Source: a virus (Duplodnaviria > Heunggongvirae > Uroviricota > Caudoviricetes). From it: a stretch of 5,503 bases of DNA. This document shows, piece by piece, positions 1,755-5,503 of this stretch. Within the stretch, counting starts at the first letter, position 1. Each line of letters begins with the position of its first letter. The stretch is taken from IMG/VR virus record IMGVR_UViG_2740892229_000002; one strand, given 5' to 3'. The notes beneath the pieces are model-generated. The model was not told where the DNA came from, did no database searches, and was given only the letters and a program-made list of their open reading frames with translations. The translations under genes were made by a program, and so were the position numbers.

Positions 1755-2150
1755 ATGACGAAAGATGAACTGATTGCCCGTCTCCGGTCGCTGGGTGAGC
1801 AACTGAACCGTGATGTCAGCCTGACGGGGACGAAAGAAGAACTGGCGCTCCGTGTGGCAGAGCTGGAAGAGGAGCTTGATGACACGGATGACGCAGCCGG
1901 TCAGGACACGTCTGTCAGCCCGGAAAATGCGCTGACCGGACATGAAAATGAGGTGGTATCAGCACAGACGGATACCGTGACTGATACGGCTGCTCTGGTC
2001 ACGGTTGTGGCACTGGTGACGCTGCATACCGATGCACTTCACGCCACGCGGGATGAACCTGTGGCATTTGTGCTGCCGGGAACGGCGTTTCGTGTCTCTG
2101 CCGGTGTGGCAGCCGAAATGACAGAACGTGGCCTGGCCAGAATGCAATAA
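1755..2150 (+). CDS. FI: DNA packaging / head assembly protein FI (complete, 131 aa)
   Basis: ATG 1755 preceded by GGAGGA (1745-1750); MTKDELIARLRSLGEQLNRDVSLTGTKEELALRVAELEEELDDTDDAAGQD...RVSAGVAAEMTERGLARMQ*; stop TAA 2148-2150. Confidence 0.92.
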   Translation: MTKDELIARLRSLGEQLNRDVSLTGTKEELALRVAELEEELDDTDDAAGQDTSVSPENALTGHENEVVSAQTDTVTDTAALVTVVALVTLHTDALHATRDEPVAFVLPGTAFRVSAGVAAEMTERGLARMQ

Positions 2151-2610: not shown

Positions 2611-2621
2611 NNNNNNNNNNT

Positions 2622-2873: not shown

Positions 2874-3143
2874 TCAGGTGCTGGGTGAGCAACTGAACCG
2901 TGATGTCAGCCTGACGGGGACGAAAGAAGAACTGGCACTCCGTGTGGCAGAGCTGGAAGAGGAGCTTGATGACACGGATGACGCTGCTGGTCAGGACACA
3001 TCTGTCAGCCCGGAAAATGCGCTGACCGGACATGAAAATGAGGTTGTATCAGCGCAGCCGGATACCGTGACTGATACGGCTGATCTGGTCACGGTTGTGG
3101 CACTGGTGACGCTGCATACTGATGCACTTCACGCCACGCGGGA
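2874..3143 (+). CDS. FI: FI internal fragment
   Basis: LGEQLNRDVSLTGTKEELALRVAELEEELDDTDDAAGQDTSVSPENALTGHENEVVSAQPDTVTDTADLVTVVALVTLHTDALHATR; T->P and A->D relative to the complete copy. Confidence 0.88.
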
Positions 3144-3154
3144 NNNNNNNNNNG

Positions 3155-3214
3155 GCTGTGGCATTTGTGCTGCCGGGAACGGCGTTTCGTGTCTCTGCCG
3201 GTGTGGCAGCCTAA
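3155..3214 (+). CDS. FI: FI C-terminal fragment carrying premature stop (TAA 3212-3214 where other copies have GAA); original stop would be 3245-3247
   Basis: AVAFVLPGTAFRVSAGVAA* versus ...AGVAAEMTERGLARMQ* in the copies at 2040-2150 and 3284-3379. Confidence 0.75.
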   Translation, partial: AVAFVLPGTAFRVSAGVAA

Positions 3215-3258
3215 ATGACAGAACGTGGCCTGGCCAGAATGCAATAACGGGAGGCGCT

Positions 3259-3272
3259 GTGGCTGATTTCGA
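3259..3272 (+). CDS. FII: FII start fragment (GTG start), cut by N-run
   Basis: GGGAGGCGCT GTG GCT GAT TTC GA. Confidence 0.7.
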
Positions 3273-3283
3273 NNNNNNNNNNT

Positions 3284-3379
3284 GAGGCTGTGGCATTTGT
3301 GCTGCCGGGAACGGCGTTCCGTGTCTCTGCCGGTGTGGCAGCTGAAATGACAGAGCGCGGCCTGGCCAGAATGCAATAA
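3284..3379 (+). CDS. FI: FI C-terminal fragment with native stop (TAA 3377-3379)
   Basis: EAVAFVLPGTAFRVSAGVAAEMTERGLARMQ*. Confidence 0.88.
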   Translation, partial: EAVAFVLPGTAFRVSAGVAAEMTERGLARMQ

Positions 3380-3390
3380 CGGGAGGCGCT

Positions 3391-3744
3391 GTGGCTGATT
3401 TCGATAACCTGTTCGATGCTGCCATTGCCTGCGCCGATGAAACGATACGCGGGTACATGGGAACGTCAGCCACCATGACATCCGGTGAGCAGTCCGGCGC
3501 AGTAATACGTGGTGTTTTTGATGACCCTGAAAATATCAGCTATGCCGGACAGGGCGTACGCGTTGAAGGCTCCAGCCCGTCCCTGTTTGTCCGGACTGAT
3601 GATGTGCGGCAGCTGCGGCGTGGAGACACGCTGACCATCGGTGAGGAAAACTTCTGGATAGACCGGATTTCGCCGGATGATGGCGGAAGCTGTCATCTCT
3701 GGCTTGGGCGGGGCGTACCGCCTGCCGTTAACCGTCGCCGCTGA
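3391..3744 (+). CDS. FII: Head-tail joining protein FII (complete, 117 aa, GTG start)
   Basis: GGGAGG SD at 3381-3386, GTG 3391; MADFDNLFDAAIACADETIRGYMGTSATMTSGEQSGAVIRGVFDDPENISYAGQGVRVEGSSPSLFVRTDDVRQLRRGDTLTIGEENFWIDRISPDDGGSCHLWLGRGVPPAVNRRR*; stop TGA 3742-3744. Confidence 0.93.
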   Translation: MADFDNLFDAAIACADETIRGYMGTSATMTSGEQSGAVIRGVFDDPENISYAGQGVRVEGSSPSLFVRTDDVRQLRRGDTLTIGEENFWIDRISPDDGGSCHLWLGRGVPPAVNRRR

Positions 3745-3755
3745 AAGGGGGATGT

Positions 3756-3935
3756 ATGGCCATAAAAGGTCTTGAGCAGGCCGTTGAAAACCTCAGCCGT
3801 ATCAGCAAAACGGCGGTGCCCGGTGCGTCAGCAATGGCCATTAACCGCGTTGCTTCATCCGCGATATCGCAGTCTGCGTCACAGGTTGCCCGTGAGACAA
3901 AGGTACGCCGGAAACTGGTAAAGGAAAGGGCCAGG
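3756..3935 (+). CDS. Z: Tail completion protein Z, N-terminal fragment (60 codons)
   Basis: AGGGGG SD then ATG 3756; MAIKGLEQAVENLSRISKTAVPGASAMAINRVASSAISQSASQVARETKVRRKLVKERAR. Confidence 0.9.
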
Positions 3936-3947
3936 NNNNNNNNNNGA

Positions 3948-4265
3948 ACGGCGGTGCCCGGTGCCGCCGCAATGGCCATTAACCGCGTTGCTTCATCCGC
4001 GATATCGCAGTCGGCGTCACAGGTTGCCCGTGAGACAAAGGTACGCCGGAAACTGGTAAAGGAAAGGGCCAGGCTGAAAAGGGCCACGGTTAAAAATCCG
4101 CAGGCCAGAATCAAGGTTAACCGGGGGGATTTGCCCGTAATCAAGCTGGGGAATGCGCGGGTTGTCCTGTCCCGACGCAGGCGTCGTAAAAAGGGGCAGC
4201 GTTCATCCCTGAAAGGTGGCGGCAGCGTGCTTGTGGTGGGAAACCGTCGTATTCCCGGCGCGTTT
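3948..4265 (+). CDS. Z: Tail completion protein Z, internal fragment
   Basis: TAVPGAAAMAINRVASSAISQSASQVARETKVRRKLVKERARLKRATVKNPQARIKVNRGDLPVIKLGNARVVLSRRRRRKKGQRSSLKGGGSVLVVGNRRIPGAF. Confidence 0.9.
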
Positions 4266-4277
4266 ANNNNNNNNNNC

Positions 4278-4658
4278 AAAAATCCGCAGGCCAGAATCAG
4301 GGTTAACCGGGGGGATTTGCCCGTAATAAAGCTGGGTAACGCGCGGATTGTCCTGTCCCGACGCAGGCGTCGTAAAAAGGGGCAGCGTTCAGCCCTGAAA
4401 GGTGGCGGCAGCGTGCTTGTGGTGGGAAACCGTCGTATTCCCGGCGCGTTTATTCAGCAACTGAAAAATGGCCGCTGGCATGTCATGCAGCGTGTGGCCG
4501 GGAAAAACCGTTACCCCATTGATGTGGTGAAAATCCCGATGGCGGTGCCGCTGACCACGGCGTTTAAACAGAATATTGAGCGGATACGGCGTGAGCGTCT
4601 TCCGAAAGAGCTGGGCTATGCGCTGCAGCATCAACTGAGGATGGTAATAAAGCGATGA
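4278..4658 (+). CDS. Z: Tail completion protein Z, C-terminal fragment with stop (TGA 4656-4658)
   Basis: [126 protein letters not shown]. Confidence 0.9.
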   Translation, partial: KNPQARIRVNRGDLPVIKLGNARIVLSRRRRRKKGQRSALKGGGSVLVVGNRRIPGAFIQQLKNGRWHVMQRVAGKNRYPIDVVKIPMAVPLTTAFKQNIERIRRERLPKELGYALQHQLRMVIKR

Positions 4659-4700: not shown

Positions 4701-4711
4701 NNNNNNNNNNT

Positions 4712-4816
4712 ACCACGGCGTTTAAACAGAATATTGAACGGATACGGCGTGAACGTCTTCCGAAAGAGCTGGGCTATGCGCTGCAGCATCAACTGAGAAT
4801 GGTAATAAAGCGATGA
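4712..4816 (+). CDS. Z: Tail completion protein Z, extreme C-terminal fragment with stop (TGA 4814-4816)
   Basis: [34 protein letters not shown]. Confidence 0.9.
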   Translation, partial: TTAFKQNIERIRRERLPKELGYALQHQLRMVIKR

Positions 4817-5208
4817 AACATACTGAACTCCGTGCAGCCGTACTGGATGCACTGGAGAAGCATGACACCGGGGCGACGTTTTTTGATGGTCGCCCCGCTG
4901 TTTTTGATGAGGCGGATTTTCCGGCAGTTGCCGTTTATCTCACCGGCGCTGAATACACGGGCGAAGAGCTGGACAGCGATACCTGGCAGGCGGAGCTGCA
5001 TATTGAAGTTTTCCTGCCTGCTCAGGTGCCGGATTCAGAGCTGGATGCGTGGATGGAGTCCCGGATTTATCCGGTGATGAGCGATATCCCGGCACTGTCA
5101 GATTTGATCACCAGTATGGTGGCCAGTGGCTATGACTACCGGCGCGACGATGATGCGGGCCTGTGGAGTTCTGCCGATCTGACTTATGTCATTACCTATG
5201 AAATGTGA
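4813..5208 (+). CDS. U: Tail terminator protein U (complete, 131 aa)
   Basis: ATG 4813 overlapping Z stop; [131 protein letters not shown]; stop TGA 5206-5208. Confidence 0.93.
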
Positions 5209-5215
5209 GGACGAT

Positions 5216-5503
5216 ATGCCTGTACCAAATCCAGCAATACCGGTGAAAGGTGCCGGAACCACCCTGTGGGTTTATAACGGGAGCGGCGACCCTTATGCGA
5301 ACCCGCTTTCAGACGTTGACTGGTCGCGTCTGGCTAAAGTTAAAGACCTGACGCCCGGCGAACTGACCGCTGAGTCCTATGACGACAGTTATCTCGATGA
5401 TGAAGATGCGGACTGGACCGCGACCGGGCAGGGGCAGAAATCCGCCGGAGATACCAGCTTCACGCTGGCGTGGATGCCCGGAGAGCAGGGGCAGCAGGCG
5501 CTG
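5216..5503 (+). CDS. V: Major tail protein V, N-terminal 96 codons (runs off window end)
   Basis: GAGGA SD then ATG 5216; [96 protein letters not shown]. Confidence 0.9.

Follow-up and report, generated by a model that had tools for sequence, protein, structure and literature searches.

The gene treated here is FI of the lambda-like phages. In lambda, gpFI acts as a chaperone linking the capsid to the complex of terminase and DNA; it is dispensable in vitro and can be bypassed by suppressor mutations (PMC13595911). FI was scored as essential for lambda in vivo in a CRISPRi map (PMC10695390), and its essentiality is recorded elsewhere too (PMC13595911). FI mutants package DNA poorly in vivo, the need for FI being bypassed by mutations in terminase or in the capsid protein, the ‘fin’ suppressors (PMC13595911). 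The classical amber mutants (FIam) carry nonsense mutations in FI, as does the allele described below. They are, however, laboratory alleles of lambda, whereas here an ochre codon lies close to the C-terminal end of FI in a wild prophage copy, with intact FI genes alongside.

We analysed one stretch of DNA of 5,503 bases (the window), in which the late genes stand in the same order as in lambda, E-FI-FII-Z-U-V. A block of 119 bases (3154-3272) carries the last 30 codons of FI. With G restored at position 3212 these match lambda-like FI exactly, and FII lies downstream across a lambda-type junction; the window allele differs in having TAA at codon 121, and its product would lack the final 11 residues. 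The same FI background sequence occurs in the prophage of the Shiga-toxin-producing Escherichia coli O103 strain RM8385 (NZ_CP028112.1, 1353-3657). That prophage is visibly defective, with E split by IS621 and Z annotated as frameshifted. Its FI, by contrast, is intact, with G at the position of 3212, and the window shows neither the E nor the Z lesion.

The third point of comparison is technical, namely the SNP-bubble nodes that short-read de Bruijn assemblies, with Velvet-style scaffolds, form from multi-copy repeats. In both cases the node is as long as the number of 61-mers covering its variants (119 here), overlaps its neighbour by 60 bases at the right and lacks its first k-1 bases at the left, and nodes of different copies are interleaved in map order between spacers of 10 N. 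Taken together, the stop allele is a truncated allele of a well-known gene, like the FI nonsense mutants and the point lesions common in defective lambdoid prophages, and nothing suggests a new mechanism.

An in-frame stop near the end of FI

Codon 3212-3214 is TAA, whereas the equivalent codons in the two other C-terminal copies of FI (2115-2117 and 3344-3346) are GAA, in the same frame and context. The change is a G-to-T transversion at 3212 that replaces Glu121 of the 131-residue protein. In translation the block gives AVAFVLPGTAFRVSAGVAA, a stop, MTERGLARMQ and the native stop; with G restored at 3212 it runs through ...VAAEMTERGLARMQ to the native stop. Coordinates are collected in the table.

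Table. Features of the FI region and spacers in the window
Feature	Position	Strand	Basis or remark
119-base assembly block with the variant (one de Bruijn node)	3154-3272		flanked by N10 at 3144-3153 and 3273-3282
FI codons 102-120 (AVAFVLPGTAFRVSAGVAA), within the C-terminal domain	3155-3211	+	translation; the intact copy matches PF14000 and PDB 2LSM
Premature TAA for GAA (Glu121)	3212-3214	+	sequence comparison; T allele absent from all public collections searched
FI tail MTERGLARMQ, now untranslated, and native TAA stop (3245-3247)	3215-3247	+	translation
GGGAGG, hexamer resembling a Shine-Dalgarno sequence, 4 bases before the start of FII	3249-3254	+	predicted from sequence
FII GTG start and first codons (MADFD...), cut by the block end	3259-3272	+	sequence
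Intact 131-aa FI with GAA at 2115-2117, on block 1396-2175	1755-2150	+	profile and structure match; the 119-base block is a bubble on this contig
Third C-terminal copy of FI (GAA at 3344-3346), then FI-FII junction, on block 3283-3935	3283-3390	+	block alignment
N10 runs 1-7	272-281, 757-766, 1242-1251, 1386-1395, 2176-2185, 2353-2362, 2611-2620		block map
N10 runs 8-13	2864-2873, 3144-3153, 3273-3282, 3936-3945, 4267-4276, 4701-4710		block map

Against block 1396-2175 the 119 bases show three differences (3154 G/A, 3155 G/C and 3212 T/G); against the nearest public relatives, the RM8385 prophage and phage PhiR47_2, position 3212 is the sole difference. The alignment is ungapped and the block holds no indel, so that we are dealing with a substitution and not with a frame problem: an in-frame stop at a conserved sense codon, which is GAA in every public copy examined. 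The initial annotation had described exactly this, a change of GAA to TAA relative to the two other copies and a single base altered within near-identical flanks, and direct comparison bears it out, with 118 of the 119 bases agreeing with the closest public sequences. It put the loss at the last 10 residues; the actual figure is 11 (E plus MTERGLARMQ), which leaves a product of 120 out of 131 residues. Of the 270 single-base substitutions that the FI part of the block allows, only 5 (1.9%) create a stop, but the site was picked because TAA is a stop, and a chance test hardly applies to a direct sequence difference. The coincidence is mild and equally unlikely whether the T is real or an error.

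The intact FI at 1755-2150 matches the profile PF14000 (Packaging_FI) with E = 2.4e-51 over positions 1-131 of 131, and the 119-base block with G restored is lambda-like FI exactly. FI is preceded by E, the gene of the major capsid protein, and followed by FII, which codes for head-tail joining, in the order seen in PhiR47_2 and the O103 prophage. A different upstream setting was found in the complete genome CP200002.1 (1-6400), where the tail module FI-FII-Z-U-V stands without lambda head genes upstream; in their place are genes for SSB, a capsid-E-like protein, a decoration-protein-like protein and AlpA, together with a HEPN/GmrSD pair on the opposite strand. This replacement of the head module could be a satellite or defence-island insertion.

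FI is extremely common, the exact intact protein being indexed in 11,136 blocks of a public collection. Lambda FI sequence also occurs in genome assemblies of unrelated bacteria, among them Undibacterium, Amycolatopsis, Arthrobacter, Bradyrhizobium and Desulfosporosinus, mostly on contigs of 350-1,900 bases and in some cases (Pseudomonas sp. 30_B, Pseudomonas sp. NFX15 and Shewanella canadensis) on contigs of ~48.4-48.5 kb, about the size of the lambda genome. These look like contamination with lambda control DNA rather than real prophages. Among public FI proteins, P0001 (206 aa) contains residues ~45-119 twice, and P0019, P0035 and P0090 continue beyond the end of FI into FII sequence; all four are assembly or frameshift artefacts.

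The window as a chain of assembly nodes

The window is neither continuous DNA nor a single prophage. It comprises 14 blocks, from 119 to 793 bases long, with a run of exactly 10 N at each of the thirteen joins. All blocks are pieces of lambda-like late regions in one orientation, sorted by map position, and each stretch of the late region is covered by several overlapping versions. As many as three different 61-mers fall on one reference position, and the window therefore holds at least three paralogous copies of lambda-like prophages. Complete E. coli genomes hold up to five copies of the E-FI-FII-Z-U-V region. Parallel haplotypes and mosaic long blocks would look the same if the blocks came from several strains or a subpopulation, with T a minority variant in the culture, but one E. 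coli genome with up to five copies of the region suffices for three haplotypes and nothing in the window requires a mixture, which we regard as very unlikely.

In ten blocks the end lies exactly 60 bases past the last difference from some other block, in seven it is a single 60-mer common to a neighbour, and in ten the first base departs from that of a block which continues through the position. This geometry is the signature of de Bruijn graph nodes with k = 61, printed without their first k-1 bases. Velvet scaffolds put a minimum of 10 N between nodes, and the layout of the window is, we presume, that of a Velvet-style scaffold. A search of the literature for the 10-N gap convention of Velvet scaffolds found nothing relevant, and the naming of Velvet as the assembler is our own deduction. 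We also considered whether block 1-271, which ends within 2 bases of the IS621 insertion point of RM8385, might link the stop to that defective prophage. This was rejected: the block ends 60 bases past its last difference from blocks 282-756 and 767-1241, so that the agreement is a coincidence only, and its last bases continue intact E sequence.

Short and long blocks behave differently. The short ones have 0-2 differences from known sequences, whereas the long ones (282-756, 767-1241, 1396-2175, 3283-3935 and 4711-5503) have 4-8 differences from the nearest single public sequence, yet no novel base. The best complete-genome matches of long blocks reach 98.7% and 98.9% only, and no long block has an exact match among the fetched lambda-like loci, because the long blocks are mosaics that can be tiled by 2-5 segments of known haplotypes. 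Consensus paths switching between prophage copies are a more likely source of these mosaics than natural recombinants. Open reading frames read across the N10 joins are artefacts, for example a 300-aa ‘Z’ at 3756-4658 and the ORF at 1207-1713. Block 2186-2352 holds a markedly divergent form of the C-terminal part of E, which has 89% identity to each reference prophage and encodes ...LSEGINASPRYPKNWKTSGDP... in place of ...QREGINASARYPKNWVTTGDP...; it is a known haplotype, one difference away from many loci of the panel described below.

The block with the stop fits this scheme as a bubble on the contig of block 1396-2175. Its three variant sites span 59 bases, less than k = 61, and the 61-mers starting at 3094 through 3212, each with at least one variant, number 119, which is the length of the printed node. 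The block starts at the first variant, a G that differs from contig 1396-2175, and ends k-1 bases past the last (3272 - 3212 = 60); both blocks end on a common 60-mer (3213-3272 = 2116-2175). The 60-mer at 1997-2056, the required branch point of the bubble, is a natural upstream context in 3 of the 7 panel loci with the G version. The T at 3212 is phased with GG at 3154-3155, markers of a genuine fourth haplotype that has G at the site in O103 RM8385 and in PhiR47_2.

Phasing of the 119-base block extends over 60 bases on each side only, and the stop thus cannot be assigned to a particular prophage. The initial annotation had placed it in ‘one prophage copy’; with k = 61 nodes drawn from at least three paralogous prophages, and with mosaic long blocks, this cannot be established. 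Its further suggestion of a ‘decaying, defective prophage’ finds no support inside the window. All 14 blocks align ungapped to the viable phage PhiR47_2, the codon at 3212 is the only premature stop and no block has a frameshift. This absence of other stops and frameshifts holds for the 14 blocks, which are not assignable to individual prophages and of which the long ones are mosaic.

Rarity and origin of the T at 3212

Megablast with the 119-base block gave 4,567 hits, spread over 3,206 of the 5,426 complete E. coli genomes; of 50,697 phage records, 81 were hit. Neither set held an identical match. The best matches, at 118/119, came from 14 complete genomes and phage PhiR47_2, and in both of those fetched (the O103 RM8385 prophage and PhiR47_2) the single mismatch was G at 3212. 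A 41-mer centred on the T, in which any 28-base megablast seed must include the T, had no match in the 5,426 complete E. coli genomes on either of two sequence backgrounds, whereas the G control hit 3,058 places in 2,301 of them. An exact 23-base pattern around 3212, in which the third position of the Ala codon before it could be any base, was likewise without a match for T in 185,579 species-representative genomes, in IMG/VR viral contigs and in JGI/ENA metagenome contigs; the G controls gave 53, at least 120 and at least 120 matches, respectively.

The same base stands out within the window. In a panel of 295 fetched lambda-like loci, which was selected for G at 3212 and for which the T-pattern scans cover that site independently, T at 3212 is the only window base never seen. 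None of the other ~5,370 called bases is absent from the panel or even rare in it, for which reason the consensus quality looks high.

For the TAA there are two explanations, each of them ordinary: a recent mutation private to the strain, or a sequencing error. The initial annotation had already offered a real truncated allele and a sequencing error as the options, and both are still live. We lean slightly towards the former, a real G-to-T substitution, private to the strain, which truncates gpFI from 131 to 120 residues in one of the three or more lambda-like prophage copies. In a k = 61 assembly, the copy with GG at 3154-3155 and T at 3212 would depart from the copy in contig 1396-2175, the 119 k-mers covering these sites would collapse into one bubble node and the scaffold would print this node between 10-N spacers, beside the other copies. 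The substitution, its uniqueness, the node geometry and the place of the stop in the C-terminal domain are shown; read support for the T is presumed. A real T is favoured because it lies on a node with the GG haplotype markers, the G version of the same 119-mer being present in 14 genomes and PhiR47_2, because the node is unbranched throughout, even where a path with G would leave it, and because its ends follow the k = 61 rule of ten other blocks. It is favoured also because the branch 60-mer is natural for the haplotype and no private base occurs elsewhere in the window. A well-covered assembly holds more SNPs that are private with respect to database genomes than errors in the consensus, and bubble-popping de Bruijn assemblers discard low-coverage error paths and keep the better-covered one.

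The reading of the T as real is weakened by the fact that the allele is unseen among thousands of FI copies, as an error would also look. The true base could be G, with recurrent miscalls or damaged templates having given rise to enough T-bearing 61-mers to outlast error removal; G-to-T is a known oxidative-damage artefact of library preparation. The node would then have been printed only because the error fell within k of two real variants and so produced 119 k-mers instead of 61, whereas a simple error bubble of 61 k-mers would have been popped or filtered out. This is a serious contender, though we hold it to be somewhat improbable. It agrees with the absence of T from all collections, where the G controls were plentiful, with the T being the only private base in the window and with its place in the shortest of the blocks, in an assembly of repeats that is fragmented and mosaic; a smallest block of 119 bases fits a length filter hiding ordinary error bubbles, and the G version of the node, at only ~62 k-mers, would hence be invisible. 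It sits poorly with a node that is unbroken at the point where the G alternative would fork, with the habit of bubble-popping assemblers of retaining the better-covered path and with the lack of any private base in the other blocks, though several of these are short nodes from closely spaced variants. The missing G branch counts for little, however, because on the GG background that branch would amount to ~4 k-mers and would never be printed, and long blocks run through graph forks, so an unprinted G branch could exist.

Expected consequences for FI and for the prophages

The C-terminal domain of FI is said, by Popovic et al. in 2012, to carry the binding to the capsid protein gpE. Residues 74-131 align to the solved structure of this domain, PDB 2LSM, through its last residue, and the stop allele, with 11 of the 58 aligned residues removed (about a fifth), no longer encodes the complete domain. 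The lost tail falls within the PF14000 model as well. The tail (E)MTERGLARMQ, or a one-residue variant of it, is present in 117 of the best 120 FI cluster representatives, none of which ends at VAA, and it is invariant or nearly so in an alignment of 24 sequences. An AlphaFold2 model of FI built on that alignment, which was too shallow (24 sequences of 89-99% identity), was set aside: pLDDT was below 50 for residues 48-131 and the model was uninformative on the tail. If the stop is real, the FI copy that bears it is probably null or weakened, because the 11 lost residues fall in the C-terminal domain, which reportedly binds the capsid. The same assembly holds at least two intact, near-identical FI copies on other blocks, and since FI is diffusible the defect would probably be complemented in trans, with little phenotype.

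The start of FII (GTG at 3259, with GGGAGG upstream) is unaffected by the change at 3212, and the same GGGAGG arrangement also precedes the 117-aa FII ORF at 3391-3744. Ribosomes would stop 44 bases before the FII start instead of 11, an effect on FII being unlikely.

The truncation might also be a functional, selected variant, which we consider highly improbable. In one version the truncated gpFI would be dominant-negative, its intact N-terminal part and damaged C-terminal domain hindering packaging by co-resident lambdoid phages; in another, TAA-ATG would split the gene and the MTERGLARMQ peptide would be made by reinitiation. Circumstantially, a natural ATG (3215-3217) does follow the stop directly and in frame, several near-identical lambda-like late regions in the assembly could interact, and a stop is an improbable (1.9%) result of random change. 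But a selected variant should recur, and the T is found in none of the thousands of public FI copies, nor does an end at VAA occur in the best 120 cluster representatives. The ATG is merely the ancestral Met122, and the ~15 bases before it (GGTGTGGCAGCCTAA) contain no Shine-Dalgarno-like purine run (GGAGG or GAGG). That the truncated gpFI is an interference allele, selected in prophage competition for poisoning the packaging by co-resident prophages that share nearly the same FI, is barely credible and is contradicted by the complete absence of the T allele elsewhere.

The stop at 3212 carries very little biological weight. Its practical lesson concerns the data, with interleaved nodes and mosaic long blocks: differences between ‘copies’ inside the window must not be read as alleles of identifiable prophages. 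An erroneous T would mean one incorrect base in a draft assembly. A real T would add one to the private point mutations that inactivate late genes of prophages, and the cell would still have intact copies of the gene.
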